Notes: a model not told the origin generated them from the sequence alone. Counted from the first letter of the stretch, positions 4,053 through 62,494 are shown. The stretch: 64,000 bases of DNA from Spirochaetia bacterium (GCA_965208575.1 CBDBOV010000006.1:1184001-1248000), one strand, 5' to 3'. Made by a program: numbers and translations.

Positions 4053-4119
4053 GACCGGCGTAACCTACCAAGTTAACCGATGGGCCGGCAACGAAAGCCG
4101 GCCAGCACGTGCCAGCACG

Positions 4120-4728: not shown

Positions 4729-4856
4729 GACCCACAGGGTAGCAGGGCTGCAGCGCCCTTTGCACACGCGTCACACACGTCGCCGGGACTCGGCCGAAAC
4801 GTGCCGCTGCCGCTATGGTACCTTCCTGCCCGATTCTCATCCGATTGGAGTAGCTC

Positions 4857-35024: not shown

Positions 35025-36427
35025 CCGGCGGGCGTGGCACGCAGCGCGTACAGGTCGGCGAGGGAGTACCAGCCGTCTGACTTGCTTCTCGCAGCGGGCT
35101 TGCGGCGGGTGAAGTAGCGGCGGCCGAGCGTGGCGCCGCGGCTGTTGGGATACTGCTGCAGTTTGCGCTCCAGCTCGGCTTCCAGGGCACGCGGCGAGCG
35201 CACCGGACCCCACTTGCACTCGCCGAGGTCGGTCCAGTTGTCGTCGCGCATGCCGACCACGTCGATCTGCGTCGCCGTGCTCCAGTATTCGCCGACTTCG
35301 AATGCGGCTGCCACCCGCTCCTGGGCATAAATGAGCGGCAGCGCCTCCCGGCACAACCGTTCGAAGCAGCCACCGAACCAGGCGTCGAGTGACGGCGCAA
35401 TGCGATCGCCGAAAGCGCGGTCCGGGCCGGCGCTGCGGATCACGCTCACGTTCGGGAACACGAAACGGAACCAGAACCGCAACAGCGGATCATCGATTTC
35501 GAAACGTACCCGACGCCGATTGGGGCGGTGGCCTTCCAGCGGATAGCGGCGGCGCAGGTAGCCGAGACTGGTCAACTGCTGCAGGTAGTAGTGCAGGTTG
35601 CGCTCCGGCAGCCCGGTGGCGGTTGCAATTGCCGGTGCTGTGCCGTGGCCGGAGGCTACCGCATGCAGCAGCGCCTGGTACGGGGCGACTTCACGCAGCT
35701 CCTCACGGAGCAGAAACACCGGCTCGTGAAACAGCGGGGCGAACTCGGAGAGCACTTGCTCCCTGACGTTGGCGCCTATGGAGCGGCTGTCGTCGAGGTA
35801 CAGCAGGTACTGAGGCAGCCCGCCGACCAGGAAGTAGGCTCGCGCCTGGTCCTGGAGCGACCAGCGCGGGTGGAACCGGGCCGCTTCACGGTAGCCGAAC
35901 GGCTGCAGATGGATCTGGGCAGTACGCCGGCCGAACAGCGGGCTCTTGCTGCCCAGCACCTCGCGCTCCATGAAGCCAAGGTAGGACCCGCACAACAGGA
36001 GCATGACGTTGCCGGCATCGCGCCACCAGCGGTCCCAGCAGTGCTGCAGCTCCGCGAGCAGGCCCGGGCTGGCGGCCACGATCCACTGGAATTCGTCGAG
36101 AGCCAGCACCAGTTTCCGGCCGGGGTTGTTGCGCGTCCATTGCTCCGTGACCGTGCGCAGCGCCTCCTGCCAGCCGGTGGCGCGCAATTGCGCCAGCAGC
36201 GGCACGCCGAGTGCGCCGGCGGCCTCGGCCAGGAACTCCCGCACCTGCAGCGCAGGCGAAGACTGCTGGCCGACGAAGTAGACGCCGGGCTGGTCCGCCA
36301 TGAACTGCAGTATCAGTTCGCTCTTGCCTACCCGGCGCCGCCCATAGATCGGGACAAGCTCGGATCTCGGCGAACGGAGCGCTTGCCGCAGCAGGGCCAA
36401 TTCCTCTTCGCGACCAATGAACTGCAC
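35021..36427 (-). CDS. Archaeal-type AAA ATPase with DUF234/PD-(D/E)XK C-terminus
   Basis: FIGREEEL, YGRRRVGKS, LDEFQW, LCGS, SPLFGRRT, DPLLRFWFRFV and QIDVV...GECKW motifs. Confidence 0.9.
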   Translation of the reverse strand: MQFIGREEELALLRQALRSPRSELVPIYGRRRVGKSELILQFMADQPGVYFVGQQSSPALQVREFLAEAAGALGVPLLAQLRATGWQEALRTVTEQWTRNNPGRKLVLALDEFQWIVAASPGLLAELQHCWDRWWRDAGNVMLLLCGSYLGFMEREVLGSKSPLFGRRTAQIHLQPFGYREAARFHPRWSLQDQARAYFLVGGLPQYLLYLDDSRSIGANVREQVLSEFAPLFHEPVFLLREELREVAPYQALLHAVASGHGTAPAIATATGLPERNLHYYLQQLTSLGYLRRRYPLEGHRPNRRRVRFEIDDPLLRFWFRFVFPNVSVIRSAGPDRAFGDRIAPSLDAWFGGCFERLCREALPLIYAQERVAAAFEVGEYWSTATQIDVVGMRDDNWTDLGECKWGPVRSPRALEAELERKLQQYPNSRGATLGRRYFTRRKPAARSKSDGWYSLADLYALRATPAG

Positions 36428-36436
36428 AACAGCGGC

Positions 36437-36512
36437 AGGATGCCGGATGCATCAGCATTCGTCAAGCCGTGTTTGGACAAGTCACGACTATACAAGTCAT
36501 GACTTGACGAAT
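36437..36512 (-). promoter_or_regulatory. Promoter and palindromic operator-like sites upstream of the ATPase
   Basis: Minus strand TTGACG-17nt-CATCCT before the GTG; perfect palindrome CAAGTCATGACTTG (36493-36506); near-copy CAAGTCACGACT at ~36478; outer inverted repeat ATTCGTCAAG/CTTGACGAAT. Confidence 0.55.
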
Positions 36513-36513
36513 T

Positions 36514-36990
36514 TCACGCGAATCCGGCAAGCAGTCGCGGGTCGTACGCGAAGCTCTCGATGGCTGCAATCGTGATGCGCACGGCGTCACGGTGGCGATG
36601 GTTGATGACGATGTTGCGGTCGTCGGCGTCGGGGATCGGCACTATCGCGGAGGGTACGCGCAGCAGACAGGAGGAAGCGCGGTCCAACCAGGCGCCGCCG
36701 ACCCGGCGGGTCAAGCGCTGATCGGCGCGCCAATCCTCCGGGAGATCGGCAAGCCGCGACTCCTCCACCCGCAGATCGTCGGGCACGTCGTAGCGGATCA
36801 GCATGGTGTCGTCGGGAAGCAGGGCGGCGTCCTCGACGTGCACGAGCTTCTCCAGCACACAGAGGGCCGGACCGGTGGCACAGTAGGTCACCAGTTGCCC
36901 GCGCTCATTCCATCGGCCCGCGTGTTGCAGCCCGTAGCCGCCATCGAATCGATCGGCAAAAGCCGCCCCCGAGAGCCGCCACAGCTTCAT
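36514..36990 (-). CDS. RES domain toxin
   Basis: GRWN...VTYCA...LEKLVH and LRVPSAI...NIVINH motifs. Confidence 0.92.
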   Translation of the reverse strand: MKLWRLSGAAFADRFDGGYGLQHAGRWNERGQLVTYCATGPALCVLEKLVHVEDAALLPDDTMLIRYDVPDDLRVEESRLADLPEDWRADQRLTRRVGGAWLDRASSCLLRVPSAIVPIPDADDRNIVINHRHRDAVRITIAAIESFAYDPRLLAGFA

Positions 36991-37433
36991 CAGGCCGCCG
37001 CGCCCCAGGAGATCCGCGCCAGCAGACTCTCGACCACGCGAGCGCCGGCATCGGTGCGGATCAACTCCATCGGCGTGCGACCACCGAGCGCACCGAGACT
37101 GCGGTGCAGCCAGCGGTGTGCCTTGTCCCGGCTGGCGAAGGTCCGCTCCGCGAGCACCAGGCCGCGCGCTACCCGTGCGGCACGATCGGACTCGTCGACC
37201 GTCAGCCGTCCTCCGTTCGCCCGCCGGTGCGACAGGGTACGCGGCTTGATGATCAGAGAGCCTACTTCCGCCTCCGTCACGCCGCGCTGCCTGAGTTCGT
37301 CGATCGCCTTGATCGGGAAACCGCCGGCAACCGCGCCTGCCATGTCGGCATCCGAATGCACTTCGAGGCCGACGCCGGCGACGCCGCCCAGGAGGTCCGC
37401 CGCGTCCTCCGCGAGGCTTCTATACTCATCCAC
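36990..37433 (-). CDS. Xre/MbcA/ParS-type antitoxin
   Basis: RTLSHRR...LTVDESDR, A-RWL...LGGRTP and GARVVESLL-RI motifs; GGAGG RBS before GTG 37433. Confidence 0.92.
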   Translation of the reverse strand: MDEYRSLAEDAADLLGGVAGVGLEVHSDADMAGAVAGGFPIKAIDELRQRGVTEAEVGSLIIKPRTLSHRRANGGRLTVDESDRAARVARGLVLAERTFASRDKAHRWLHRSLGALGGRTPMELIRTDAGARVVESLLARISWGAAA

Positions 37434-37536
37434 CGGGTCATCCTCCCCCCCGTTCGGCAACTTGCCTATACTGTGACGGCATATTGCCGTTTCGTCAAGA
37501 CAATCCCACCGTGGTCTGGTTCCCGGCAACCGCGCT

Positions 37537-40080
37537 TCATGCTTTCATGCGGGTGTCGGCGGGGTCGAAGGTGGCCAGGCCGGGGGCGACGGTGACCGGG
37601 AAGGGCTCGTTCATGTACAGCACCTGCAGGCGGGTGCCGGGGGCGGCGTGCTCCGGCGGCAGGTAGGCGAGCAGCAGGTACTTGCCGACCGACGGCCCCA
37701 TGCCGGCGGAGGTGACGCGCGACTCGCGGCCGTGGGCATCGACGATGCGCGCGCCGTCCGCGGTCAGGAGCGGCTCGTTGCCGCCGGTCGGGAAGCGGTC
37801 GATGCCGGCGGCACCGGCGTGGCGGTCCATGGTCAGCGCGCACATCGTCGCGGCGGGTTCGGCCGCGCGCGCGGCCAGGTAGGCCTGCTTGCCGATAAAG
37901 TCGTCGCGCTTCACGCGCGGGCGGGCCAGGCCCGCCTCCACCGGCGAGTACTCGGCGGTGAGGTCGGAGCCCATCAGCAGGTAGCCCTTCTCCATGCGCC
38001 CGGTGGTGCCGTACACGCCGATGCCGACCGGGCGGGCGTCGAGCGGGCGGCCCGCCTGCCACAGCGCGTCCCACAGGCGCACGCCGTGCTGCATGCGGGT
38101 GGTAATCTCCCAGCCGCTCTCGCCGACGTAGGAGATGCGCAGCATGGTCACCGGCACCCCGTCGATCAGCGCCTCGCGCACCGTGCCGTAGGGAAACTCC
38201 GCCTGCGACAGGCCGGTGTCGGTGATGCCGGCAAGCAGCGCCGCCGCCTCCGGCCCCCACACGCCGATGGTGCACAGCGCCGACGAGGTGTTCTCGAACT
38301 GCACCGAGCCGTCGGCCGGCAGGTGGCGGCGGAACCACACCTCGTCGCGCGCCCCGTCGAAGGCGCCGGTCACCACGCGGAACCGGTTGGCGGCCAGCCG
38401 CCCGATGGTGAGGTCGGCGCGGATGCCGCCGTCCGGCGTGAGCAGCGGCGTGTAGATCGAGCTGCCCACCGGGCGGTCGCACTTGTTGACGGTGAGCCGT
38501 TCCAGGTAGGGCACCACGCCGGGGCCGGAGAGGTCGAAGATCTGGAACGCGCTCAGGTCGACGATGCCCACCTTGTCGCGCAGGTGCAGGTGCTCGGCGG
38601 TGCTGATCGGCGACCACCAGCGCCGGTCCCACTCGTGCGGGCGGTCGGGCACGCCGTAGCGCCGCACCAGGTCGGCGTTGGACTCGTACCACTGCGGACG
38701 CTCCCAGCCGCGCGCGTCATAGTACTCGGCGCCCAGGGCGGTGGTGCGGTCGTGGAACGGCGCGCGGTTCATGCCGCGCTCGGAGGCCCACTGCTCGCGC
38801 GGGTGCACGATGCCGTAGGTCTTGTTGAAGTGCTCGTCGGCGCGGGCGCGGATGTGCTGCCCGGTGCGCTCGTGGGCGTAGAAGCGGGTGATGTCGGAGG
38901 CGTGCGGATCGCACAGCCTCGGATAGCCGTAGGTCATCCACTCCGCTATCAGGCGCGCGGTTCCCGGCCCCTCCTTGATCCACACCGCCGCCGCCGACCA
39001 CAGCTTCTCCACCTCGGCGGTCTCGCCGAGCACCTGGTGGGTGTCGGGCGTCAGCGACAGCAGCCCGTTCACGGAGTACTGCATCTCGGTGCCGGCAAGC
39101 AGCCCGCCCATGATCTCGCGCGCATGGCCGAGCTGGGGCGCGAAGTCGTCGCCGGTGAACGGCATCTCGGTGGGAGAGCGCTCCGCGTCGGCGAGCGATG
39201 GAATGTCGTCCGGGCGGACCAGGATCGGGCGGTGCGCGTAGGAGCCCACCTCCATCGCCTCGTGGCTCTGGCGCTCGTACATGAACACGTCCATGTCGCG
39301 CACGATCGGGTAGCCGATCTCGTTGCCGGTGCGGGCGAGCAGGTCGACCGGCCCCATGTCGGCCATCTGGTGCACGGCCGGGGTGAGCGGAATGCTGGCC
39401 CCGGCCATGGCGGCGATGCGCGGGCTCCACACGCCGCAGGCGATCACCACCTGCTCGGCGGCGATGGTGCCGCGCTCGGTGACCACGGCCCGGATGCGCG
39501 GGCGGCCGTACGGCCGCGGCTCCACCTGCAGCGCGGTGACCTCGGTGTTGTCCAGCACGGTCAGCACGCCCTTGGCCAGCGCGCGCTCGCGCATGAGGGT
39601 GCCGGCCCGCACCGAGTCCACCACCGACACCTGCGGCATCCAGAAGCCGCCCTTGATCACGGCGCCGTCCACGAACGGAATGCGCGCCACCACCTCGTCC
39701 GGGGTGAGCAGTTCCGCCTCGATGCCCCAGGAGCGCGCCGAGGTCATGCGCCGGCGCAGTTCCTCCATGCGCTCCTCGGTGCGCGCCACTTCGGCGCCGC
39801 CGCACGTGGTCCGCACCCCGAGCTCCTCGTACTGCCGCATGCTCTCCAGGGTGAGCATCGCGATCTCCCGGTTGTGGTCGGTGGGAAAGATGAAATTCGA
39901 CGCGTGCCCGGTGGAGCCGCCGGGGTTGGGCAGCGGCCCCTTGTCGATCAGCACCAGCTCGTCCCAGCCCAGCCCGGCGAGATGCCCCACCAGGCAGTTG
40001 CCGACGATCCCGGCCCCGATCACCACGACCCTCGCCCGCCCCGGCACCGCCGGCGAACCCGATTCAGTTGCCCTGTCCAT
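37537..40080 (-). CDS. FAD-dependent GcvT-family oxidoreductase (dimethylglycine dehydrogenase/oxidase-like)
   Basis: VIGAGIVG, GGSTGHA, TPD, GWERP, SYVGESGWE and RMEKGY motifs; DAO plus aminomethyltransferase architecture. Confidence 0.92.
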   Translation of the reverse strand: MDRATESGSPAVPGRARVVVIGAGIVGNCLVGHLAGLGWDELVLIDKGPLPNPGGSTGHASNFIFPTDHNREIAMLTLESMRQYEELGVRTTCGGAEVARTEERMEELRRRMTSARSWGIEAELLTPDEVVARIPFVDGAVIKGGFWMPQVSVVDSVRAGTLMRERALAKGVLTVLDNTEVTALQVEPRPYGRPRIRAVVTERGTIAAEQVVIACGVWSPRIAAMAGASIPLTPAVHQMADMGPVDLLARTGNEIGYPIVRDMDVFMYERQSHEAMEVGSYAHRPILVRPDDIPSLADAERSPTEMPFTGDDFAPQLGHAREIMGGLLAGTEMQYSVNGLLSLTPDTHQVLGETAEVEKLWSAAAVWIKEGPGTARLIAEWMTYGYPRLCDPHASDITRFYAHERTGQHIRARADEHFNKTYGIVHPREQWASERGMNRAPFHDRTTALGAEYYDARGWERPQWYESNADLVRRYGVPDRPHEWDRRWWSPISTAEHLHLRDKVGIVDLSAFQIFDLSGPGVVPYLERLTVNKCDRPVGSSIYTPLLTPDGGIRADLTIGRLAANRFRVVTGAFDGARDEVWFRRHLPADGSVQFENTSSALCTIGVWGPEAAALLAGITDTGLSQAEFPYGTVREALIDGVPVTMLRISYVGESGWEITTRMQHGVRLWDALWQAGRPLDARPVGIGVYGTTGRMEKGYLLMGSDLTAEYSPVEAGLARPRVKRDDFIGKQAYLAARAAEPAATMCALTMDRHAGAAGIDRFPTGGNEPLLTADGARIVDAHGRESRVTSAGMGPSVGKYLLLAYLPPEHAAPGTRLQVLYMNEPFPVTVAPGLATFDPADTRMKA

Positions 40081-40158
40081 ACCCGCCAATGGTGGGAGCT
40101 TGTCGAGACGGGTCAAGGTGTCCGCGCGGCTGTCGTGTGTGCGGACGCTTCGCCCTAT

Positions 40159-41020
40159 GCAGCAGGAACGCGTTGCTGGGCCCGGCAGGCGGTGCTATCT
40201 TGTCGGAGGCGGAGCGCACGCGATGGCGGATCACAACGGACACAGCGGACCGGCTGACTCAGAGGAAGTGTGGGCCATTCTGCGCGAACTCGCACGGAGC
40301 CAGCAGGAAACCGATCGCCGCATGCAGGAAACCGACCGCCGCATGCAGGAAACCGACCGCCAGATGAAGGAAACCGACCGCCATCTCCGCAAGCTCGACG
40401 ATTTGTTCAACGGGCAGTGGGGCAAGCTGATGGAAGCCCTCGTGGAAGGCGATCTCGTCGAGTTGCTCAACGAGCGCGGCATCAGGGTCGAGCACACCGC
40501 AACCAATCTCAAGAGGGAACGCGGTGCGCGCCGATGGGAAATCGACATTCTGGCCGTCAACGGTGACGAGGTCGTGGTGGTGGAAGTGAAGACCACCCTC
40601 AAGGTGCGCCACGTCGATCACTTGGTGGGTCTGTTGCGCGATCTTCCGGAGTTGATGCCCGAGTATCGAACCAAGCAGATCTACGGAGCGGTCGCCTATC
40701 TCAAGGCCGACGAGTCCTCGGGATCCTACGCCGAACGACAGGGGCTGTACGTGATTCGCGCCACTGGCAGCAGCGCCAGCATCATCAACCGGCACGGCTT
40801 CCGGCCACGCAAGTTCGGCCGTCACGCCGCCACCGCAGGCCGGCACGAGTAACACTCCCGTCGCACTCCCGTCGTAGCGTGGCCGCTGGACCCGCCGGGC
40901 CGAACCCAACTCGGGCAGGCGGCAGTCGACGCGGCGGCAAACAACTCTGCGACGGCCCGCGCTTCCAGCGATGAGGTCAGAGGCGTCCGGTGCGGCGCAG
41001 CAGGGTCAACGGTTGCGGGG
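40159..41020 (+). repeat. Long direct repeat, copy A (promoter, nuclease-like gene, spacer, stub of the BBOX-like gene 3' end)
   Basis: Aligns by eye with 44143..~45065 from GCAGCAGGAA through GGTTGCGG, with scattered substitutions and a different heptad number. Confidence 0.9.
40223..40852 (+). CDS. QETDRRM-heptad PD-(D/E)XK nuclease-like protein; paralog 2 (4 heptads)
   Basis: MADHNGH...; EIDILAVNGDEVVVVEVK; extended -10 TGCTATCTT upstream; 21-bp units at 40304..40387. Confidence 0.85.
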   Translation: MADHNGHSGPADSEEVWAILRELARSQQETDRRMQETDRRMQETDRQMKETDRHLRKLDDLFNGQWGKLMEALVEGDLVELLNERGIRVEHTATNLKRERGARRWEIDILAVNGDEVVVVEVKTTLKVRHVDHLVGLLRDLPELMPEYRTKQIYGAVAYLKADESSGSYAERQGLYVIRATGSSASIINRHGFRPRKFGRHAATAGRHE

Positions 41021-41030
41021 CCATGCTGCT
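40977..41030 (-). pseudogene. Degenerate copy of the last ~15 codons of the BBOX-like dioxygenase gene
   Basis: Reads ...TLLRRTGRL* against ...ALLRRTGRI* at 45022; the DNA CCGGTGCGGCGCAGCAGGG is shared. Confidence 0.75.
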
Positions 41031-41042
41031 CACACCGCGCAT

Positions 41043-42329
41043 TCATTGCCTCCGAAACAGAGCGTGGTAATCGCCGAACCGAACTCTATCGACCCACTGC
41101 ATCGCTGATTCGTCATACCTCTGCTCACGCCAGAAAGGCGACATCCTTATCGTATTGGCATCGTCGGTGGGTACATACGCCGACCGAAGCGTCTCTCCGG
41201 AGTGAACGTCGGTAGCGGCGGAAACCGATTCCCCGTTTCTGACTCGTTGTACGCTTGTGATCGTGTGCAGGACAGTAAGATTCTCCAGATCATGGATGAA
41301 CGTGCCGGTCAGAGTGAAGAGTTGCACGTCTTCACCCTGTGTCCGACGGTTCCTGTATGTCAGGGTTCCGTCCTCCGCGAACGTGTACGAGAACAGCCAA
41401 GTAATACCTTCATCTTCGTTAATGGAGGTCCAAGACCAAGTGCCGGTGAACTTCGCCGGGGCTGCCATTTCGGTACGCTCGAAGACTTCGAATTCAAGCC
41501 CTGGCTCGTCGCTCCACCAAGAATGGATGGCAAGAAGGTCACCACCGAGAAAGTAGTCCTTGTCGACGATGACTTCGGTGCCGTCTTCGTCGCGAGTTCG
41601 CGTCAGTATGGTCCCATCCAGGCTGATACCGAAGCTATCGGTCCAGTCATCCACAAGCTCGCCGGCGCGATTCGTCCGGGTATTGTATTCGACGGCGCGA
41701 GACGCCGTAAGAGTGACCGTCTGCAATTCGTGAATGTCGCCCAGTTCATGGTGGTCGTAGTAACTCGATCGCTGCCAAGTGCCCCGTAACGGCGGCGGGG
41801 CCGCGCCCGGAGCTGGCGCCTCGCCGACGCGTGTGAATTGTTCGAAGCCCACTTCCGGATCGTTGCTTCCCCAGAAGTGAATGAACAGTAAGTTACCGAC
41901 AAGCAGGTACTCCTTGTCGACCGAGATATCTTCGCCGTCATCGTGGTACTCCAGCCGGACCGTGGATCCGGTAACGGTCGCCGTGCCCGCACGATCGCGA
42001 TCGTAAAAGGGATTCCCCTCCGAGTCAGCGCCTACGAGGCGGTCAAAGAAGTGGGTGCCGGTTAAGGTAATCGTCCTGGTTTCGGTAACCTCGACGTTGC
42101 CGTCATCGTCTCGTTCGTGGATGACACTTCGCCATGTACCCAGCAACGTCGGCTCAGATTCCATCGGAGCCGGTTCGTCGGCACGCTCAGCGGGTGTCCG
42201 CACGGCAGTACTACAACCAGCCAGGAGTGTAAGGACAGCGATCAGGAGTGTAGCGACAATCAGCATCGTCGCATTCGCCCGCATGACGCGGTGCTGCAAC
42301 TCCCTAAGAAAAACACTCAGTGGTCTCAT
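41043..42329 (-). CDS. Lipoprotein with three LxGTW beta-barrel (lipocalin-like) repeats
   Basis: LAGC lipobox; repeats LLGTW, LRGTW and FTGTW; GGAGG RBS before ATG 42329; paralog of the next gene. Confidence 0.75.
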   Translation of the reverse strand: MRPLSVFLRELQHRVMRANATMLIVATLLIAVLTLLAGCSTAVRTPAERADEPAPMESEPTLLGTWRSVIHERDDDGNVEVTETRTITLTGTHFFDRLVGADSEGNPFYDRDRAGTATVTGSTVRLEYHDDGEDISVDKEYLLVGNLLFIHFWGSNDPEVGFEQFTRVGEAPAPGAAPPPLRGTWQRSSYYDHHELGDIHELQTVTLTASRAVEYNTRTNRAGELVDDWTDSFGISLDGTILTRTRDEDGTEVIVDKDYFLGGDLLAIHSWWSDEPGLEFEVFERTEMAAPAKFTGTWSWTSINEDEGITWLFSYTFAEDGTLTYRNRRTQGEDVQLFTLTGTFIHDLENLTVLHTITSVQRVRNGESVSAATDVHSGETLRSAYVPTDDANTIRMSPFWREQRYDESAMQWVDRVRFGDYHALFRRQ

Positions 42330-43653
42330 CGGCTTTCCTCCCGAGCCTGAAAAAGTAGTCCCCATAAGGGTGGTCCTGGTTCTCTGTCCACGTCGCCGTA
42401 TCGTCATCGTACGTAAGCTCCCTCCCAGCGGGAGACAAGATTATTTCGTCGGGGTTGCCCGTTGGTGCGTATGCGTAGCGCAATACGTGGCCTTCATATT
42501 GAGCCGAATCGAAGTCCTCATCGGCTGATCCGTCGATTGTTTGCGCGGCTTGTTGTCCGGTTACGAACACGAAGCCGCCTTCGTCGTCGTACCGGGCGCT
42601 TCCTGTGAAGTAGAACGTGTCGCGCCTGGGCGTGCTCATGCGGTAGTCGTCGGTGAATGATGATTCACCGAACGTGAATATCCAATTGGCATGGAATTCT
42701 TCGCCATCCCTGGTCCAAGTGTCCCCACACGTCCACGAGCCCAAAACGCCACCCGGTAACGGATCCTGCACGCGCATGAAGACGTCGAGTTCATCGAGCG
42801 GATCGTCGGCCCACCACGGATTGATAGCAAGCAGGTCGCCGACGATCACGTATCGCTTTTCGACGGAGTGTTCCTGACCGTCTTCGAAGACTTTCTTGGT
42901 GACGCTGGTCGCGTTGTCGGTCCAACCTCCCTGGTCCGGCCATGTTCGTACCACTTCGCCGTTATCGGTACTGAATCGCACCGTGTCCACGATGAACCGA
43001 TTGCCAGTGAACGTGACCGTCCGTACCTGCTCTATCCAGCCGTCTTCGTCATCTTCCCAAGCCGCGTACCTTTGCCACGTACCCCTCAGAGTGGACGGCT
43101 GACCTGTCGCCGCCGGTGCGTCTGCCACGCGGACGAAGCGGTCGAAGCCATCCACCGGTCCGTCATCTCCCCAGTGATGGATCAGCAGTACGGCGCCGTC
43201 ACCGGCCAGGACGTACTCCTTTTCGACAGAAACCATTCCGTCGTCGTCGACGAAGGTCTTCGTGACACTATTGCCGGTGTGACTGGCCGTACCCGCCCGG
43301 TCATACTTGTCGCGTGTGCGGCCATCTGCATCCTGTACATGGTTTCGTTCAAAGAAGTGAGTTTCGGTAATCGTGAGCGTGGTGGTCTCTTTTTCATCGA
43401 CCGCGCCGTCATCGTCGCGGCCGTAGGAGACCGTCTCCCACGTCCCCAATAACGTCGGCGGCGGTTCTGCAGGCGGCGTTTCGGCGGGAGGCGCTGTCGT
43501 CGGTCGCGGGGGTGCGGCCGAATCGCACGCGACCAGGAACGCGGTCAGCACCGCAGACAGGGCGACGCTGACCACACGCCTCGCCCGCACCCGCGGCAAC
43601 CGCAGGTTGGTTGAGATTACGCTCAGGGCGACGGCTAGTTGGGGCCTGTCCAT
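42304..43653 (-). CDS. Lipoprotein with three LxG[TS]W beta-barrel (lipocalin-like) repeats
   Basis: LVAC lipobox; repeats LLGTW, LRGTW and VLGSW; GAGGAG RBS. Shares THFF-R, KEY-L and IH-WG motifs with 41043..42329. Confidence 0.75.
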   Translation of the reverse strand: MDRPQLAVALSVISTNLRLPRVRARRVVSVALSAVLTAFLVACDSAAPPRPTTAPPAETPPAEPPPTLLGTWETVSYGRDDDGAVDEKETTTLTITETHFFERNHVQDADGRTRDKYDRAGTASHTGNSVTKTFVDDDGMVSVEKEYVLAGDGAVLLIHHWGDDGPVDGFDRFVRVADAPAATGQPSTLRGTWQRYAAWEDDEDGWIEQVRTVTFTGNRFIVDTVRFSTDNGEVVRTWPDQGGWTDNATSVTKKVFEDGQEHSVEKRYVIVGDLLAINPWWADDPLDELDVFMRVQDPLPGGVLGSWTCGDTWTRDGEEFHANWIFTFGESSFTDDYRMSTPRRDTFYFTGSARYDDEGGFVFVTGQQAAQTIDGSADEDFDSAQYEGHVLRYAYAPTGNPDEIILSPAGRELTYDDDTATWTENQDHPYGDYFFRLGRKADETTECFS

Positions 43654-43761
43654 AAGACACACTCCTCATCTGGTGTATTGGTGATGGTCGCCGCGGTTGT
43701 TACACGTCGGTAGCTGTTGCCCGGGACGCCAACGTCGACCCGGCCAAGGTGCCGGGCCGTT

Positions 43762-43905
43762 AGCGAAAGTCCTGTCCCTACCGAGTGTAGATGGGTCTCC
43801 CTCGGTCTATTCGCCCTGGTCGAGGTAGCTACTCCTCGACCGTCCGGGCTGTTGTATTCAACCGAGTAGCCCGGCCTGAGCCGGGTAGGGACTCGAACTT
43901 TCGCT
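43762..43905 (-). ncRNA. Candidate structured cis-regulatory RNA (or MITE-like element) upstream of the lipoprotein pair
   Basis: Closing stems AGCGAAAGT/ACTTTCGCT and GTCCCTACC/GGTAGGGAC enclose hairpins CCGAG/CTCGG, GGTCGAGG/CCTCGACC and CCGGGCT/AGCCCGG. No family recognised; strand inferred from context. Confidence 0.45.
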
Positions 43906-44142
43906 TGACGAAATGGTTACACGTTGTCGGAGAGATAGTCAACCCCACCGTCGTCCATGGCCTTGATCCGGACTTGCTTGTCTTATACAATCTATTAGTA
44001 TATAATACTTTACTTTGATCTCCGACCCTCTCCGTGACGACGTGAGAACGATTGGCGCACGAGTACCAACTCGTGGCGGACGGACATCTTTATGCAATAG
44101 GGCGTTAATATATGATAGGATTACACTTGGCGGAGGCGGCCC

Positions 44143-45065
44143 GCAGCAGGAATGTTGCTGGGCCCGGCAGGCGGTGCTATCTTGTCGGAGGCGGAGCGCA
44201 CCCGATGGCGGATCACAACGGACACAACAGACCGGCTGACTCCGAGGAAGTGTGGGCTATTCTGCGCGAACTCGCACGGAGCCAGCAGGAGACCGATCGC
44301 CGCATGCAGGAAACTGACCGCCAGATGCAGGAAACCGACCGCCGCATGCAGGAAACCGACCGCCAGATGCAGGAAACCGACCGCCGCATGCAGGAAACCG
44401 ACCGCCAGATGAAGGAGACCGGCCGCCATCTCCGCAAGCTCGACGATCTGTTCAACGGGCAGTGGGGCAAGCTGATGGAAGCCTTGGTGGAAGGCGACCT
44501 CGTCGAGTTGCTCAACCAGCGCGGTATCAGGGTCGAGCACACCGCAACCAATCTCAAGAGGGAACGCGGTGCGCGCCGCTGGGAAATCGACATTCTGGCC
44601 GTCAACGGTGACGAGGTCGTGGTGGTGGAAGTGAAGACCACCCTCAAGGTGCGCCACGTCGATCACCTGGTGGGTCTGTTGCGCGATCTTCCGGAGTTGA
44701 TGCCCGAGTATCGAACCAAGCAGATCTATGGAGCGGTCGCCTATCTCAAGGCCGATGAATCCTCAGGATCCTACGCCGAACGACAGGGGCTGTACGTGAT
44801 TCGCGCCACCGGCAGCAGCGCCAGCATCATCAACCGGCAAGGTTTCCGGCCACGCAAGTTCGGCCGTCACGCCGCCACCGCAGGCCGGCACGAGTAACAC
44901 TTCCGTCGCACTCCCGTCGTAGCGTGGCCGCTGGACCCGCCGGGCCGAACCCAACTCGGGCAGGCGGCATTCGACGCGGCGGCAAACAACTCTGCGACGG
45001 CCCGCGCTTCCAGCGACGAGGTCAGATGCGGCCGGTGCGGCGCAGCAGGGCGAGGTGGTTGCGGA
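44143..45065 (+). repeat. Long direct repeat, copy B
   Basis: Matches 40159..~41020 and runs into the intact 3' end of the BBOX-like gene. Confidence 0.9.
44205..44897 (+). CDS. QETDRRM-heptad PD-(D/E)XK nuclease-like protein; paralog 3 (7 heptads)
   Basis: Near-identical to 40223..40852 but 63 bp longer; 21-bp units at 44286..44432. Confidence 0.85.
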   Translation: MADHNGHNRPADSEEVWAILRELARSQQETDRRMQETDRQMQETDRRMQETDRQMQETDRRMQETDRQMKETGRHLRKLDDLFNGQWGKLMEALVEGDLVELLNQRGIRVEHTATNLKRERGARRWEIDILAVNGDEVVVVEVKTTLKVRHVDHLVGLLRDLPELMPEYRTKQIYGAVAYLKADESSGSYAERQGLYVIRATGSSASIINRQGFRPRKFGRHAATAGRHE

Positions 45066-46146
45066 CGTTGTCGTGCTCGAAGTAGGCGTCCTGCAGGTGG
45101 CGCCGTCCACCGGAGCCCAGCGCGGTGCGTCCGTGCAGCACGCGGTGCGCGGCGATCAGCAGCACCTGCCCGGCCCCCAGGCGGAGAGAGACCTGTGAGT
45201 CGGCCGCGTTCACGCGCGTGGACAGCTCGTGGTAGGCGGCGTAGAAGGCGCCCAGGCGGTGCTCGGCAAGGGGGACGGTCTTCATCTGCTGGGTGTTGAA
45301 GCGCAACAGCCTGACGTTGCCTTCGCCGTCGAGTTCGACCATCGGATTGACCGCGTAGCTCTCGTCGTGCTCGCTGGCCAGGCGGAACGGCACCGGCACC
45401 GTGCACAGCACGTCGAACAGGCCGGGATGTTCGCGGCGCAAGTCTTCGAGCACCCGGAAGCCGTCCACGATCGAGGACTCGCCGCCGTCGCAGTCGTTGG
45501 CCAGCATGTGCAGCACCTGCACGCTCGGCGGCCAACTGTAGCTGGTGAAGTCGTTGTGCGGCGCGATCGCCAGGTCGGTGTGCGCGATGCTGTATCCCTT
45601 CGGATCTACCACGACGTTGTGGATGCGATCGAACACCACCTCGCGCAGCGGGCCCAGACGGGCGGTGAGCTGCTCGGAAGAGTCGGGTTCGGTGGGCGCG
45701 TCCACGAGCACGCACGCCCCGGTCGCCAGGAACTCCTCGATCAGGTCGGCGGCCGTGCGGTCGTCGCCGAGGAACCGGCTGAAGTCGTACCTGCGCGGCT
45801 GGAAGCTGGAATCCCAATGCTGGACGTGGTCGCGCGTCCGGTGAGGCTGACCGGCCAATCGGCGAAGCTCCCCCGATCCATACCGGGTACGGTGGCCGTC
45901 GGGCCACACGATCGCCAGCGCCTCGTCGTCGCGGCCGCGACACTCGATGGTCACCTGCCGCGGACGAATCTCCCGGGCGACCCGGAAGATGTGGAACCGC
46001 TTCTCCGTGGTCTGCACGACACGGCATTCGCTGCAACCGCAATTGTCGCGCAACCAGAGGTAGGGAAGGCTGGTCTCCTCCCCGCCCCGCCAAACCGCCG
46101 CCATGGCGTCGCCGTTCTCGACGACCCTGCTGATGGAGTGCTCCAT
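45022..46146 (-). CDS. Fe(II)/2-oxoglutarate dioxygenase, gamma-butyrobetaine hydroxylase (BBOX/TmpA)-like
   Basis: N-terminal Zn-site WLRDNCGCSEC...WPDGH; HxD (PHNDF); GGES-IVDGF; RVLHGR. Confidence 0.9.
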   Translation of the reverse strand: MEHSISRVVENGDAMAAVWRGGEETSLPYLWLRDNCGCSECRVVQTTEKRFHIFRVAREIRPRQVTIECRGRDDEALAIVWPDGHRTRYGSGELRRLAGQPHRTRDHVQHWDSSFQPRRYDFSRFLGDDRTAADLIEEFLATGACVLVDAPTEPDSSEQLTARLGPLREVVFDRIHNVVVDPKGYSIAHTDLAIAPHNDFTSYSWPPSVQVLHMLANDCDGGESSIVDGFRVLEDLRREHPGLFDVLCTVPVPFRLASEHDESYAVNPMVELDGEGNVRLLRFNTQQMKTVPLAEHRLGAFYAAYHELSTRVNAADSQVSLRLGAGQVLLIAAHRVLHGRTALGSGGRRHLQDAYFEHDNVRNHLALLRRTGRI

Positions 46147-46401
46147 GTTCGATCACCTCAACCCGTCGCGACCGATCTGGGGCCGTGCGGCCCCGGCGAT
46201 GTGAAGCAAGAATGCAGAATGGGAATCTGGCTCTCCAAATGACGTGTGACGCCCTGCCTTGTCAAGAGTTTTCCGCGCTGTTTTTCAACTATTTTTCTGG
46301 ACCGCCGAAGGTGCGTCCGCCGGCATCCCTCGCGACCGGCGGGAGGCCGTATTGACCCGCCGCGCGATCCCGCGTACATACCATCGCAGGGGGCAGGTTG
46401 C

Positions 46402-46998
46402 ATGCATGGAACCGGAACAGCACGCGCCGCCACGGTGAGCTTCACCGCCATGGCAGACGGCACCCGCGAGGACTACGAACTGCTGGCGCGGTTCGAGGAA
46501 GAATACGCCGCCGGGCTCGCCGACCGCGTGCTGGCACAGTTGCGCGCGCTGGCCGGCTCGCTGGCCGGCTACCAAGTGGACCGCCTGGAGCACTCGCTGC
46601 AGACTGCGACGCGCGCGCACCGCGACGGCGCCGACGAGGAGATGGTGGTGGCCGCGCTGCTGCACGACATCGACGACCTGCTCGCCCCGCACTGCCACGG
46701 CGAGCTGTCCGCCCTCATCCTGCGCCCGTACGTAACCGAGAAGACGTACTGGATCGTGCGCCACCACGGGCTGTTCCAACTCGTCTACTACGCCCACCAC
46801 CATGGCCGCGACCGCAACGCGCGCGACCAGTACCGCGGCCATCCGTGGTATCAGGACGCGGTGGACTTCTGCCACCGCTGGGACCAGGCGGCCTTCGACC
46901 CCGACTACGAGTCGCTGCCGCTGGAATTCTTCGAACCGATGGTGCGCCGGCTGTTCGCGCGCGAGCCGTTCAGCCTGGCGCCGAGGGGGCATTCATGA
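46402..46998 (+). CDS. HD-domain metalloprotein
   Basis: RLEHSLQTATRA, ALLHDI, HG, HHGLFQ and WDQAAFDP motifs; upstream TTGACC-17-TACATA. Confidence 0.87.
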   Translation: MHGTGTARAATVSFTAMADGTREDYELLARFEEEYAAGLADRVLAQLRALAGSLAGYQVDRLEHSLQTATRAHRDGADEEMVVAALLHDIDDLLAPHCHGELSALILRPYVTEKTYWIVRHHGLFQLVYYAHHHGRDRNARDQYRGHPWYQDAVDFCHRWDQAAFDPDYESLPLEFFEPMVRRLFAREPFSLAPRGHS

Positions 46999-48299
46999 CC
47001 GGCCAACCGCAAAGCGTCGACCAGTCCGACCGCATCGTTCCGATCAACCTGCGCCAGAGCGGACGCACGCCCACCGAGCTGTTGATCTCCAACCGCGTGC
47101 GCAAGTCGCCGTACTGGCACCTGTCGCACGAGGCGGGCTGCTGGCGCGCCACCGTGTACAACCGCATCTACCATCCGCGCGGCTACGTGCGCCCGGAGGA
47201 TGGCGGCGCGTCCGCCGAGCACGAGGCGCTGACCCACCACGTGACCATGTGGAACGTGGCGGTGGAGCGGCAGATCCGCGTGCAGGGCCCGGACGCGGAG
47301 CGGTTCGTGGACTACGTGATTACCCGCGACGCCACCCGCATCAAGCCGATGCACGGCAAGTACGTGATCCTGTGCAACGAGCGCGGCGGCATCCTCAACG
47401 ACCCGGTGCTGCTGCGCCTGTCCGAGGACGAGTTCTGGTTCTCGCTCGCCGACTCCGACCTGCTGTACTGGCTGCAGGGCGTCAACGTCGGCGCGCGCAT
47501 GGACGTACGGATCGACGAGATCGACGCGTGCCCGGTGCAGATTCAGGGCCCCAGGTCGGAGGCGCTGATGGCCGACCTCGTGGGCGCGGGCATCCGCGAC
47601 ATCCCCTACTACGGCATCATGGAGGCCGAGGTGGGCGGTTGCCCGGTAGTGATCTCGCAGTCGGGGTTCTCGGGCGAGAAGGGCTACGAGATCTACCTGC
47701 GCGACGCCACGCTGCACGCCGAGGCGATGTGGAACGCGGTGCTGGAGGCGGGCAAGGCGCACCAGCTCTCGGTGATCGCGCCCGGCCACCAGCGCCGCAT
47801 CCAGGCCGGCATCATGTCGTGGGGTCAGGACATCGACCACGAGACGCTGCCGTTCCAGTGCAACCTGGCCTACCAGGTGCCGCGCCGCAAGCAGGGCGAC
47901 TACATCGGCAAGGCGGCGCTGGAGCGGGTCCGCGAGCAGGTCGACGCCGGCAACCCGCCGTTCAAGATGATGCTGGTGGGCATGACCCTCGGCGGCAAGC
48001 CGATCGACGACTACGCCCCCGACTTCTGGCTGGTGTCGGACGCCGCCGGCGGCGACCCGGTCGGCTACCTCACCTCGCCGTGGCACGCGCCGGAACTGGA
48101 CACCAACATCGCGCTCGGCTACGTGCCGGTGGGCATGTCCGCGGTCGGCACCGAGCTGACCGTGCGCCTGCCGGACGAGTACGCCACCGAGCCGGGCAAG
48201 CCGGTGCCGGCGTGCGTGTGCGAGGTGCCGTTTCGCCCCTCGGTCAACCCCAGCGCCCGCGAGCTGGCCCACTCCCGCGGCGAAGACGCCACCCGGTAG
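46995..48299 (+). CDS. GcvT-family aminomethyltransferase (DmdA-like demethylase)
   Basis: TVYN, MWNVAVERQI..GPDA, GGILNDPVLLRL, SGFSGEKGYE and RRIQAG motifs. Confidence 0.88.
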   Translation: MTGQPQSVDQSDRIVPINLRQSGRTPTELLISNRVRKSPYWHLSHEAGCWRATVYNRIYHPRGYVRPEDGGASAEHEALTHHVTMWNVAVERQIRVQGPDAERFVDYVITRDATRIKPMHGKYVILCNERGGILNDPVLLRLSEDEFWFSLADSDLLYWLQGVNVGARMDVRIDEIDACPVQIQGPRSEALMADLVGAGIRDIPYYGIMEAEVGGCPVVISQSGFSGEKGYEIYLRDATLHAEAMWNAVLEAGKAHQLSVIAPGHQRRIQAGIMSWGQDIDHETLPFQCNLAYQVPRRKQGDYIGKAALERVREQVDAGNPPFKMMLVGMTLGGKPIDDYAPDFWLVSDAAGGDPVGYLTSPWHAPELDTNIALGYVPVGMSAVGTELTVRLPDEYATEPGKPVPACVCEVPFRPSVNPSARELAHSRGEDATR

Positions 48300-48327
48300 G
48301 CCGGCGCAACGCGCACAGGTGCTCGGC

Positions 48328-48420
48328 GTGCAGCCCAACGTCGTCTATATCGACTGCCACGATCTGGGCGACTGGCTCGCCTGCTACGGGTATCCGTGGC
48401 CAGACACGCCGCACCTTGAC
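48328..48420 (+). pseudogene. Diverged duplicate of the first 31 codons of the sulfatase gene
   Basis: QPNVVYIDCHDLGDWLACYGYPWPDTPHLD against 49255..49347; manual count 79/93 nt and 28/31 aa identical. Confidence 0.9.
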
Positions 48421-48523
48421 ATCTTCGGCCAATTTGCTCTATTGACTTTGGGAGTTGGAGGGAGTCCGATGGAGCGTCTCCTTTACTCGGCGTTTCCGAG
48501 ACACAACCTCTCGCGAATTGGCA

Positions 48524-48907
48524 ATGCTGCAAGAGATAGGCCAAATACTGTCCCAGTCGTTCGGAAAACTCCGCATCAAGAGTGCGCTCAACCCCATCCT
48601 ATGGCTTTGCGGAATTGTCGTGATACCAAGTATATGGATGGCCAGCCGACAGGAAGGTGGACTTCCGGTGTGGCTGATTGTCCTGATTTTCCTGCCGGTT
48701 TCTGTCGCTGTGTTGGGTTTCCTCGTCTTGCTCTTCTTTGACAGGGACAAGCTACAATCCGAAGACTACCAGATACGGAAGCAATCACTGGAATTGATTC
48801 AGGAGAAAGGAGATCCGGTCCCCGTTCGGGCTACCTCAATCGACGCGATTACCAACCCAGGGCGACCGAGACTCGACAACAAGGACGAAAGAGGATCAGC
48901 ACCATGA
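48524..48907 (+). CDS. Small two-TM membrane protein (lower-GC cassette); start uncertain
   Basis: KSALNPILWL, two hydrophobic helices, then DRDKLQSEDYQ; ATGA overlap with the next gene. Confidence 0.7.
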   Translation: MLQEIGQILSQSFGKLRIKSALNPILWLCGIVVIPSIWMASRQEGGLPVWLIVLIFLPVSVAVLGFLVLLFFDRDKLQSEDYQIRKQSLELIQEKGDPVPVRATSIDAITNPGRPRLDNKDERGSAP

Positions 48908-49185
48908 AGCGGACATACCTTCTGATCTACAGCGACAGATTGGGAACGCGGGAAGAGATCAAGGAGTTCCTCGACGGAAGATCTGAGATTCTGTATTGGC
49001 GCTACGACCTTCCTCATGCATTCTACTTGGTTTCGAACCTCTCCGCAGAAGATCTATACGAGATTGTTCAGAGATACAATCAGGAACGCGGTCTCTTTCT
49101 CATCAGCGAAGTTGGCGAAAATACGCAAGGCTGGCTTCCGAAAAAGACATGGGTGCTGTTGAACGCCGAGTACGCTCGGCAGTAG
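48904..49185 (+). CDS. Small hypothetical protein, possible Cas2-like ferredoxin fold
   Basis: TYLLIYSD...W...FYLVSNLSAEDL...FLISEV...QGWL...W pattern; GAGG RBS. Confidence 0.7.
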   Translation: MKRTYLLIYSDRLGTREEIKEFLDGRSEILYWRYDLPHAFYLVSNLSAEDLYEIVQRYNQERGLFLISEVGENTQGWLPKKTWVLLNAEYARQ

Positions 49186-49254
49186 TGTGTCGCAGTCTCT
49201 CCACCGTGCGTTAGCGCACGTCGCCGATGCGACGGCTTAGGTATTGGATTCGGC

Positions 49255-50748
49255 GTGCAACCCAACGTCGTCTACATCGATTGCCACGACCTGGGGGACT
49301 GGCTGGGCTGCTACGGGCGCCCGTGGCTGGACACGCCTCACCTCGACGCGCTGGCGGCGCAGGGAGCGCGGTTCGCGGAGCACATCGCGGCGGCGCCGAT
49401 CTGCATGCCGAGCCGGACCGCCATCTATACCGGGCTGATGCCGCACGAACTCGGGGTAACCGGGCAGGAGTCGCTGCTGCTGGGCGAAGGGGCGCGCCCG
49501 CTGGCGGCCCGGTTCCGAGACGCCGGCTACCGCACGGCGCTGTGCGGGCGGCTGATGGTGCTCAACGACGCGCGGGAGATGGGCTTCACCGAGCAGCTTG
49601 AAGCCGGACGCGACGAGCAGGCCGCCGCCGCGGTGGCGTTCCTGGCAGCCCAGGGCTCCGCGCGGGAAGACGGCGCAGGCGGCGCCCCGTTTCTGCTGTC
49701 GGTGTCCTTTACCGAGTGTCACCGCCCGTTCGGCGACCGCTACGACGCGGAGGTGCCCGACCGCGTGGAGGTGCCGCCCTACCTGCCCGACACCGGCGCC
49801 ACGCGCCGCGACTTGGCCACCCTGGCGTGGCAGATTCGCGGCCTGGACCGGCGCGTTGGCCAGGTCCTGGCCGCCCTTGAACGCGCCGGCCTGGCCAACG
49901 ATACCCTGGTGGTGTTCACCACCGAGCACGGCCCGGCGATCGCGCGCGCCAAGCACACCACGTACGACTCCGGGCTGCGCACGGCCCTGCTGCTGCGCCT
50001 GCCGGGGGCGATCCCGGCCGGCACCGTCGTGGACACGATGACCAGCAACGTCGACCTGCTGCCCACGCTCGCCGATCTGTGCGGCCTGCCGGCGCCAGCA
50101 GCCGTGCACGCGTCGAGCGGGGCGCCACACCTCGCCGCCGGCCCCGGCGCCACCGCCGTGCCGCCCGCCACGCGCGTCGCAGGTGGATTATCTGGCCGCA
50201 CCACCAGCGACCATGCGGCGGCGACGCCGGGCGCGCGCGGCGTGAGTTGGGCCGCACGGGTCACCTCCGGCGATACCCGTGCAGCGCGCCCGTTCGCGTT
50301 CAGCGAGTTCAACTGGGGGCGGCGCAGCGGGGCGTGGTACTACACGCCGAGCCGGGTGATCCGCGGCCCGCGCTACAAGCTGATCCGCGGCTACCGGCGC
50401 ATCCCGATCTACGTGGACTCCGGCTGGCTGGCGCGCTACGCCGGCGACCGGCAGACGGTGGAGCGCTGGTATGCCGAGCCGCTGCCCGCCACCGGGTTGT
50501 TCGACCTGCAGGAGGATCCGTTCGAGCTGCGCAACCGCGCCGGCGACCCCGCCGTGGCCGACATCGAATCCGGCCTCAACCGGCACCTCGACGAGCACCT
50601 CCGCGCCACCGGCGACCCGATCCAGGCCGGGCCGGTGGCCAACCGCGCCGGTGAACCCGACGTGCCGCAGTGGCGCCGCCGGCCCGACGGCAGCTTCCGC
50701 CTGATCACCGACGACCCGGCCGACCCGGGCGAGGTCTCCTTCACCTGA
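49255..50748 (+). CDS. Sulfatase (Cys-type, formylglycine-dependent)
   Basis: PNVVYI...DLG, CMPSR (CxPxR), TEHG...AKHT, SNVDLLPT and LFDL..DPFE motifs; internal ~40-aa low-complexity insertion. Confidence 0.92.
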   Translation: MQPNVVYIDCHDLGDWLGCYGRPWLDTPHLDALAAQGARFAEHIAAAPICMPSRTAIYTGLMPHELGVTGQESLLLGEGARPLAARFRDAGYRTALCGRLMVLNDAREMGFTEQLEAGRDEQAAAAVAFLAAQGSAREDGAGGAPFLLSVSFTECHRPFGDRYDAEVPDRVEVPPYLPDTGATRRDLATLAWQIRGLDRRVGQVLAALERAGLANDTLVVFTTEHGPAIARAKHTTYDSGLRTALLLRLPGAIPAGTVVDTMTSNVDLLPTLADLCGLPAPAAVHASSGAPHLAAGPGATAVPPATRVAGGLSGRTTSDHAAATPGARGVSWAARVTSGDTRAARPFAFSEFNWGRRSGAWYYTPSRVIRGPRYKLIRGYRRIPIYVDSGWLARYAGDRQTVERWYAEPLPATGLFDLQEDPFELRNRAGDPAVADIESGLNRHLDEHLRATGDPIQAGPVANRAGEPDVPQWRRRPDGSFRLITDDPADPGEVSFT

Positions 50749-62463: not shown

Positions 62464-62494
62464 ACCAGGACTCACAGGAGGACGAACACTCAAG

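Follow-up and report, generated by a model that had tools for sequence, protein, structure and literature searches.

We analysed a 64,000-nucleotide stretch of DNA from a Spirochaetia bacterium (GCA_965208575.1 CBDBOV010000006.1:1184001-1248000), referred to below as the window, in which two long direct repeats, each carrying a whole nuclease-like gene, bracket a pair of lipoprotein genes. Repeat A is 847 bp long (40159-41005, plus strand) and consists of a promoter-like region, the nuclease gene nucA, a 3' spacer and a 29-bp fragment of the 3' end of a BBOX-like gene. Repeat B is 908 bp long (44143-45050, plus strand), carries the paralogous gene nucB and continues into the intact BBOX-like gene; an initial annotation of this DNA had drawn the block to 45065, but the repeat ends at 45050. 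Over their full length, the two copies mismatch at 29 of 845 aligned bp, and they differ in addition by a 2-bp indel near the 5' end and by a 63-bp indel, the latter corresponding to three 21-bp units that encode the heptad QETDRRM. They are the sole long repeat of high identity within the 64 kb. No homology was found past the repeat ends, where local alignments scored 8 and 10 while shuffled sequences averaged 9.5 and 8.9, and the junctions of A and B are sharp because the flanking sequences are unrelated. The duplication-insertion structure at this locus is real, and the description given in the initial annotation, of direct repeats with a whole nuclease-like gene each around two lower-GC paralogous lipoprotein genes, agrees with the alignment, with the intact open reading frames (ORFs) of both nuclease copies and with the GC content at third codon positions (GC3) of the lipoprotein genes, 0.64-0.69.

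In each repeat, 64 bp lie upstream of the start codon of the nuclease gene. The promoter that had been placed here is kept as a promoter-like stretch, since TTGCTG-17-TATCTT was read by eye and falls under the threshold of the promoter scanner; a comparable stretch does align upstream of paralogues. The genes that follow, nucA (40223-40852, plus strand, 209 residues) and nucB (44205-44897, plus strand, 230 residues), encode proteins that are distinguished by five amino acid changes and by 21 additional residues in the heptad array of nucB. This array is built from 21-bp tandem units that encode QETDR(R/Q)M heptads, with 3.8 copies in nucA (40303-40382, plus strand) and 6.9 copies in nucB (44285-44428, plus strand). 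Downstream of the gene, each repeat has a 3' spacer of about 150 bp, which folds no better than shuffled sequences (z = -1.0 to -1.6) and so gave no evidence for a conserved RNA or a terminator. The coding differences between nucA and nucB comprise 17 synonymous and five non-synonymous changes, with a synonymous divergence of about 0.11. Because the changes are distributed in this way, we conclude that both copies have been kept functional, under purifying selection. The longest stretch of identity between A and B is 87 bp, a length that should suffice for homologous recombination, given the substrate requirements of RecA. Recombination between A and B is therefore feasible, and the lipoprotein operon could plausibly be deleted or amplified; the earlier suggestion that the cassette could be excised or amplified in this way stands as far as feasibility goes, and neither outcome was observed. 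We also noticed that the heptad ETDRxMQ is near-invariant across the nuclease family, and that the heptad DNA of nucB (44285-44428) is 86-97% identical to arrays near positions 10040-10170 in two homologous loci (L038 and L051) from Bacteroidia and Treponema metagenome-assembled genomes (MAGs), an identity far above that of the rest of the gene.

Sequence and fold together place the products of nucA and nucB in the PD-(D/E)XK superfamily and, within it, in the DUF3782/DUF8196 family, so that both are predicted nucleases. Both have an N-terminal coiled coil followed by a C-terminal PD-(D/E)XK nuclease-like domain, the arrangement that defines the DUF3782/DUF8196 type together with annotation as PF26618 or PF12644. 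The Pfam profile Hjc (PF01870) matches nucA with 27.3 bits and nucB with 25.8 bits, above its cut-off of 21.1, and among 54 aligned family members the motif residues E92, D129 and K144 do not vary, while conservation of E142 is at least 90%. An AlphaFold model of nucB with a predicted local distance difference test score (pLDDT) of 82 has an N-terminal helix of about 70 residues (13-82) and a core made up of a helix (84-105), strands (112-147), a second helix (149-165) and a further strand (173-183), that is, the alpha-beta-beta-beta-alpha-beta order expected of the superfamily. When this model was compared with the PDB using Foldseek, the best matches were the nuclease domains of Can2, Card1 and Cdn1, followed by SfsA, AF1548, NucS and Hjc, the top matches all being PD-(D/E)XK proteins. 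The assignment of the QETDRRM gene to PD-(D/E)XK in the initial annotation is thus supported by profile, motif and fold. As to the family, the cluster that contains the protein from the window carries precomputed PF01870 and PF26618 annotations, and its neighbours in a protein language-model space are Atlas clusters named DUF8196, DUF3782 or Hjc (score 0.96); in the Pfam profile search that we ran, PF12644 and PF26618 gave no match to nucA or nucB. DUF3782 has been described as the coiled-coil stalk of a prokaryotic PD-(D/E)XK endonuclease family (eLife 2016, PMC4786415), and the DUF3782/DUF8196 endonucleases share the architecture of nucA and nucB, with a long N-terminal helix and then a nuclease core bearing E92, D129, E142 and K144.

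The family is very large, as 6160 of 8000 scored candidates reached E<=1e-3. It is nearly absent from mobile replicons: one weak match, annotated as a DUF3782 protein, was obtained among 72,556 plasmid records, and none among 50,697 phage records. We found no functional study of DUF8196 or DUF3782 in the literature searched.

Between the repeats lie two genes on the minus strand, lipo1 (42304-43653, 449 residues, GC3 0.69) and lipo2 (41043-42329, GC3 0.64; start at 42329 or 42284). They are paralogous, with 36-38% identity, and their GC content of 57-60% and GC3 of 0.64-0.69 stand apart from the GC3 of 0.90-0.96 in the flanking genes. Both products have an N-terminal signal peptide that runs up to a lipobox with its cysteine, LVAC (Cys43) in lipo1 and LLAGC in lipo2, and a set of 28 homologues conserves Cys43 at 90% or more. 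The model of lipo1 (pLDDT 86.5) has three predicted beta-barrel domains, and the PDB offers no convincing analogue of the whole chain, with template modelling scores (TM-scores) of at most 0.22. Pfam Lipocalin_4 matches lipo2 with 19.4 bits, under its cut-off of 22.4, and does not match lipo1. The operon is preceded by a leader of about 300 nt (43654-43960, minus strand) that folds better than 200 of 200 shuffled sequences (z = -4.0), and from there an AT-rich intergenic region (43960-44142) with two promoter-like sites on the plus strand (43963-44006) extends to nucB, so that the structured leader and the AT-rich region reported previously are both present. A weak match of the leader to sRNA-Xcc1 (24 bits against a gathering score of 53) was treated as chance, and no Rfam family reached its gathering score anywhere in the window.

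The block separates two genes of the same strand, the BBOX-like gene and a DMGDH-like gene. The former encodes a BBOX/TmpA-like dioxygenase of the TauD family (TauD/GBBH-like; 45022-46146, minus strand), the last eight codons of which lie within repeat B; the latter encodes a protein with DAO and GcvT domains (37537-40116, minus strand) and starts 42 bp from repeat A. The fragment at the end of repeat A (40977-41005, minus strand) reads LLRRTGRL plus a stop codon, and 27 of its 29 bases match the last eight codons and stop of the BBOX-like gene at 45022-45050. The decayed copy of the 3' end of this gene that had been proposed in repeat A is therefore genuine BBOX sequence, but it is confined to a 29-bp tail. 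A C-terminal tail ending in LLRRTGRI was present in 45 of 45 BBOX homologues inspected, out of 120 listed, which span 71-97% identity and many contigs. Because the tail is kept across this range, it is native to the gene, and the possibility that the repeat donated it, that is, an element rebuilding the end of the gene, was rejected. Since repeat A carries BBOX coding sequence, the template of copy A must have adjoined a BBOX gene, as copy B does. The best match to the BBOX-like protein, with 97% identity, comes from a Spirochaetaceae MAG, and the host is a high-GC, Spirochaetaceae-like genome. On the other side of the BBOX-like gene, an HD-domain (PhnZ/TmpB-like) gene is followed by a GcvT-like gene (46246-48299, plus strand). 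With these genes, the DAO plus GcvT protein and the TauD/GBBH-like enzyme, a cluster for the catabolism of methylated amines is a reasonable setting, as had been claimed, although the scores of all cluster genes against NCBIfam equivalogs lie below the cut-offs. No integrase, transposase or recombinase family matched any of 51 distinct ORF translations scanned in the window, which agrees with the earlier statement that no recombinase is nearby.

We next consider which part of the block moves. The nuclease gene is multicopy already within the window, as had been stated: a third paralogue, nucC (387-1046, minus strand), with about 60% amino acid identity to nucA and nucB, lies in an unrelated context, and gave no Hjc match and no PF04754 match at E<=1e-5. 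Scanning genome contigs with the nuclease as the query yielded 76 loci (numbered with the prefix L), the best 69% identical and none a close relative of the present locus. Two or more nuclease copies lie within 10 kb in 12 of the 67 loci that have a full-length homologue, on the same strand in 11 of these 12. No partner gene is conserved near the homologues, the largest cluster of non-nuclease neighbours being found in six loci. Several pairs, in differing contexts, share a segment no longer than the gene and its borders. nucC and a copy in L004 are 89% identical over 725 bp, and copies in L002 and L005 are 87% identical over 645 bp; L006 and L010, which lie about 25 kb apart in one genome, are 92% identical over 842 bp. 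The contig of a Spirochaetales MAG (L007), the only one of the loci to overlap the neighbourhood of the block, shows synteny with the window (82-88% nucleotide identity) and ends at the 3' end of its DMGDH gene; at 3900-4959 it has a nuclease paralogue between an ATP-binding cassette (ABC) transporter gene and the DMGDH 3' end, and the matching slot of the window (35021-37529) is occupied by a DUF234 ATPase (PADLOC PDC-S27, 194 bits) and a RES-Xre toxin-antitoxin pair.

The proposal that nuclease copies flank other cargo is upheld by two of these loci. In a Thermoanaerobaculia MAG (L016, 9700-12270), two nuclease units of about 94% identity, each spanning from about 190 bp upstream of the start to about 40 bp past the stop codon, enclose about 900 bp with a PIN-domain gene and a small upstream ORF on the opposite strand. 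In a Spirochaetia MAG (L004, 1-13200), an ABC permease gene, the nuclease gene and an SBP_bac_5 gene make up a unit of 3.9-5.5 kb that occurs three times in tandem; identity among the units is 95-98% in the nuclease parts and 68-82% in the parts for the solute-binding protein. These comparisons suggest, from sequence, that it is the nuclease gene rather than the lipoprotein pair that is the restless part of the block, duplicating and moving as a gene-sized unit. We found no account in print of such gene-sized duplication, or of a habit of bracketing cargo, in our literature searches on DUF8196 and DUF3782. As separate observations, a fragment of a DDE transposase gene lies just upstream of the nuclease pair of L016, and genes of the Rpn/YhgA type (Transposase_31 plus DUF4351) adjoin nuclease homologues in Magnetococcales MAGs (L029, 7349-8389; L046, 1516-2661).

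The lipoproteins show a different distribution. They belong to a rare family: a word-indexed search returned 34 proteins, all unnamed, and among 1.84 billion cluster representatives 119 were found at E<=1e-3 and 16 at E<=1e-30. None of the 76 loci from the nuclease scan contains a lipoprotein homologue. Co-location with the BBOX gene in relatives was read from singleton clusters with equal contig sizes, not from sequence, and refers to a shared contig and not to adjacency. On this basis, a contig size of 36223 bp is common to a BBOX orthologue (94% identity) and a lipo2-type protein, and a size of 28097 bp is common to orthologues of BBOX and lipo1, each 81% identical, and a lipo2-type protein, which suggests that in two relatives the lipoprotein pair and the BBOX orthologue lie on one contig. 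The equal divergence of lipo1 and BBOX, 81% in one relative, suggests co-inheritance. Pairs of lipo1- and lipo2-type proteins also occur at contig sizes of 3656 bp (each about 80% identical) and, more distantly related, of 688342 and 6471 bp. The lipo2 allele from the 36223-bp contig (P0253) is 87-100% identical to lipo2 of the window over the first 150 or so residues and 27-50% identical thereafter, with a lipo1-like C terminus. Such mosaicism suggests two allelic classes exchanged by recombination. Accordingly, we regard the lipoprotein operon as a lineage-restricted, recombining surface-protein locus, and the cassette is probably not newly captured foreign DNA, as had been proposed in the initial annotation, but resident and hypervariable. 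Most likely, then, the emphasis of that annotation has to be reversed: the repeats would be the mobile, duplicating part, and the lipoprotein pair the resident locus that they bracket.

How the second nuclease unit reached its place may be indicated by the ends of the repeats. The 8-mer GCAGCAGG stands at the start of repeat A (40159-40166, plus strand) and recurs at 40997-41004, 44143-44150 and 45042-45049, so that it is found at all four repeat ends, at the start and the end of the unit in both copies. It has 26 matches in the window against 4.6 expected, and the second end of the unit would match by chance with a probability of roughly 1e-3, a post-hoc estimate of our own and not the output of a tool. 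The explanation that we favour, tentatively and with somewhat less than even confidence, is that the nuclease unit next to BBOX gave rise, at this microhomology, to a copy on the opposite side of a resident lipoprotein operon. The ancestral order would have been DMGDH, lipo2, lipo1, nuclease and BBOX. A unit of 0.85-0.9 kb, comprising the promoter, the complete nuclease gene, the 3' spacer and 29 bp from the end of the BBOX-like gene, would have been copied from copy B, beside BBOX, into the roughly 90 bp that separated DMGDH from lipo2, yielding copy A. Joining would have taken place at the 8 bp of GCAGCAGG, which bound the unit at both ends, either by template switching or through a small circle that was excised between two 8-mers and reinserted at a third. 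As a by-product, the repeats would render the lipoprotein operon excisable or amplifiable by homologous recombination. Here we infer three things: the direction of copying from B to A, the prior presence of the lipoprotein genes and the microhomology mechanism. In favour of this explanation, nucC, the loci with several copies, L016, the pairs L006/L010 and nucC/L004, and L007 all portray the nuclease as a moving gene-sized unit.

However, several findings weigh against copying of the nuclease unit around a resident operon. An ancestor with a single nuclease gene is undocumented, as no close DMGDH-BBOX relative is among the 76 loci, and the co-location of the lipoproteins with BBOX in relatives is read from equal contig sizes of singleton clusters rather than from sequence. 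The GC3 of 0.64-0.69 marks the lipoprotein pair as atypical for the genome. The synonymous divergence of about 0.11 between A and B would fit import from a sister strain equally well. Moreover, the non-coding parts of the repeats are less diverged than the synonymous sites (7 of 217 versus 17 of about 155; Fisher p = 0.004), a pattern not expected from local copying followed by simple neutral divergence. The pattern of terminal 8-mers is absent from the L016 duplicate. Finally, a second islet in the window, at 48323-49347, has a flank duplication without a nuclease gene, which means that a general integration mechanism also operates in this genome.

The last of these points bears on the strongest alternative, a single crossover, which we consider unlikely but worth weighing seriously. 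Under it, a circular DNA of a sister strain, holding the lipoprotein operon and a nuclease copy and cut imprecisely so as to include 29 bp of BBOX, would have integrated into a resident DMGDH-nuc-BBOX locus, thereby duplicating the nuclease segment, with the nuclease gene acting as a portable homology anchor. The order of the block, in which a homologous unit stands on either side of the cargo between the left and right flanks (L-H-C-H-R), is what a Campbell-type event would leave, and this much of the integration or anchoring envisaged in the initial annotation is consistent with the locus. The repeats diverge by about 3.4%, in keeping with two strain alleles; the cargo has an atypical composition and lies within a catabolic cluster that it splits; the second islet has the same flank-duplication layout with no nuclease; the nuclease-cargo-nuclease order recurs in L016; and the mosaic lipo2 alleles of relatives speak for active recombination at the locus. 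On the other hand, the event requires a recipient free of lipoprotein genes, and none was seen, whereas the relatives with BBOX genes of 81-94% identity appear, from equal sizes, to hold lipoprotein homologues on the same contig. No vehicle was found either, the plasmid and phage searches having given one weak match among 72,556 plasmids and none among 50,697 phages. The 8-mer would, moreover, stand at the unit's 5' end by coincidence. Because GCAGCAGG bounds the unit at both ends, copying of the nuclease unit fits better than single-crossover integration.

We give little credence to a tandem duplication of a segment made up of the lipoprotein operon, the nuclease gene and the BBOX tail, followed by loss of one lipoprotein copy. 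Tandem nuclease arrays are common, and the units of 3.9-5.5 kb in L004, with nuclease parts of 95-98% and cargo of 68-82% identity, offer a precedent in a relative; but two events would be needed, the second a deletion that stops precisely at the 5' 8-mer of the unit, and no remnant of a second lipoprotein gene is left of repeat A. It is very improbable that the block is an assembly artefact in which two strain haplotypes of one locus were falsely joined. A difference of about 3.4% is possible between co-assembled strains, and the source appears to be a MAG, as the best BBOX match is named as one. Nevertheless, the junctions are sharp and coincide with a microhomology of 8 bp, less than an assembler overlap would need, the nuclease ORFs of both copies are intact and bear the pattern of purifying selection, no other such repeat exists in the 64 kb, and the architecture recurs in an independent genome, that of L016. 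Least probable of all is a composite mobile element in which the PD-(D/E)XK protein would catalyse excision and integration at short sites, in the manner of flanking insertion sequence copies: the Hjc-like resolvase/nuclease fold with its intact active-site motif, the identical 8-mer at all four ends and the recurrence of nuclease-flanked cargo would suit it, but terminal inverted repeats are lacking, no target-site duplication lies outside the block, host BBOX sequence inside repeat A means that the ends are not defined by an element, no conserved ends are common to the closest homologues, and the family is nearly absent from plasmids and phages.

The copying of a nuclease unit can also be placed in a wider frame, which we advance as a bold and improbable extension. 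DUF3782/DUF8196 genes might be a widespread, hitherto undescribed, gene-sized selfish element that copies itself and its promoter to sites near and far via short microhomologies, perhaps with the help of its own Hjc-like nuclease, and so plants long direct repeats around host genes, creating integrase- and transposase-free cassettes that could be excised, amplified or exchanged, such as the lipoprotein pair, the PIN module of L016 and the ABC-transporter units of L004.

We compared the block and its nuclease with known systems. Small variable genome segments flanked by direct repeats are an established category (Genome Biol 2010, PMC2884548), and trapping of foreign DNA by homology-anchored or illegitimate recombination is credited in that paper to de Vries & Wackernagel 2002 and Prudhomme et al. 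2002. The present block resembles direct-repeat islets as that paper portrays them, in that a variable segment of a few kb without a recombinase could be deleted by recombination of its repeats. It differs from that portrayal in that the repeats are about 850-900 bp long and each contain a complete, selected gene with its own promoter, and in that one repeat includes a fragment of a neighbouring host gene. Two other classes were rejected: a composite transposon, as there is no transposase match, no inverted repeats stand at the ends, the sequences outside the block differ and host BBOX sequence lies in repeat A; and an integrase-mediated island, for which direct repeats are present, but the 51 scanned ORF translations contain no recombinase or integrase.

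For the protein, the nearest functional analogy is Rpn (YhgA-like, Transposase_31), described in E. coli as a multicopy PD-(D/E)XK protein linked to RecA-independent recombination and phage defence and with repeat numbers that vary between alleles (PMC5350276, PMC10400941). Both are multicopy PD-(D/E)XK proteins with variable repeat numbers, as far as those accounts go. In the nuclease of the window, however, the domains stand in the opposite order, the coiled coil being N-terminal and the nuclease C-terminal, and nuclease activity is only predicted; nucA and nucB were not taken for Rpn/YhgA proteins, as PF04754 gave no match at E<=0.01. The nuclease domains of Can2/Card1/Cdn1, Hjc and NucS are the best structural or profile matches to the C-terminal domain (Foldseek E-values of 1.7e-4 to 1e-3, probability 1.0). 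Whole-query TM-scores against Can2, Card1, Cdn1 and the others are 0.29-0.37, so just the nuclease core matches, and, unlike Can2, Card1 and Cdn1, the nuclease of the window has no CARF sensor domain. It matches PADLOC CARF_PDDEXK with E = 1e-6. Membership in a defence system was rejected, the only matches being weak ones to the nuclease domain of that PADLOC model, and no CRISPR genes were seen in the window.

Direct-repeat islets are known as a source of variation at the strain level; in the present block, each repeat is a whole, selected nuclease gene of a very large, uncharacterised family, and the layout recurs in another phylum. If it is true that the spread of the nuclease gene creates the repeats, this would be a transposase-free route to mobile or amplifiable cassettes and would give a first functional handle on DUF3782/DUF8196 proteins. 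If it is not, the locus is a well-documented segmental duplication beside a fast-evolving surface-lipoprotein locus.

Some further features of the window deserve mention. In the second islet, the segment 48323-48420 is an 86%-identical copy of 49250-49347, which holds the first 32 or so codons of a sulfatase gene (49255-50748). The insert between them is 830 bp long and of low GC content, and has two slightly overlapping ORFs on the plus strand that belong to no known family, one of 150 residues with hydrophobic stretches and one of 93 residues. As this islet has no nuclease, flank-duplicating integration happens in this genome without the nuclease gene. Downstream of nucC, at 1-360 on the minus strand, an AT-rich stretch is followed by the start of an ORF with a lipoprotein-type signal peptide and the lipobox LIGC; this ORF, cut by the edge of the window, shows no relation to lipo1 or lipo2 and no Pfam match. 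At the other end of the window, in a stretch of low GC content (53-61%), an ORF of 412 residues (62312-63550) has a weak NucS_C-type PD-(D/E)XK match (24.2 bits; cut-off 24) and is another nuclease-like gene, in what looks like a further islet.

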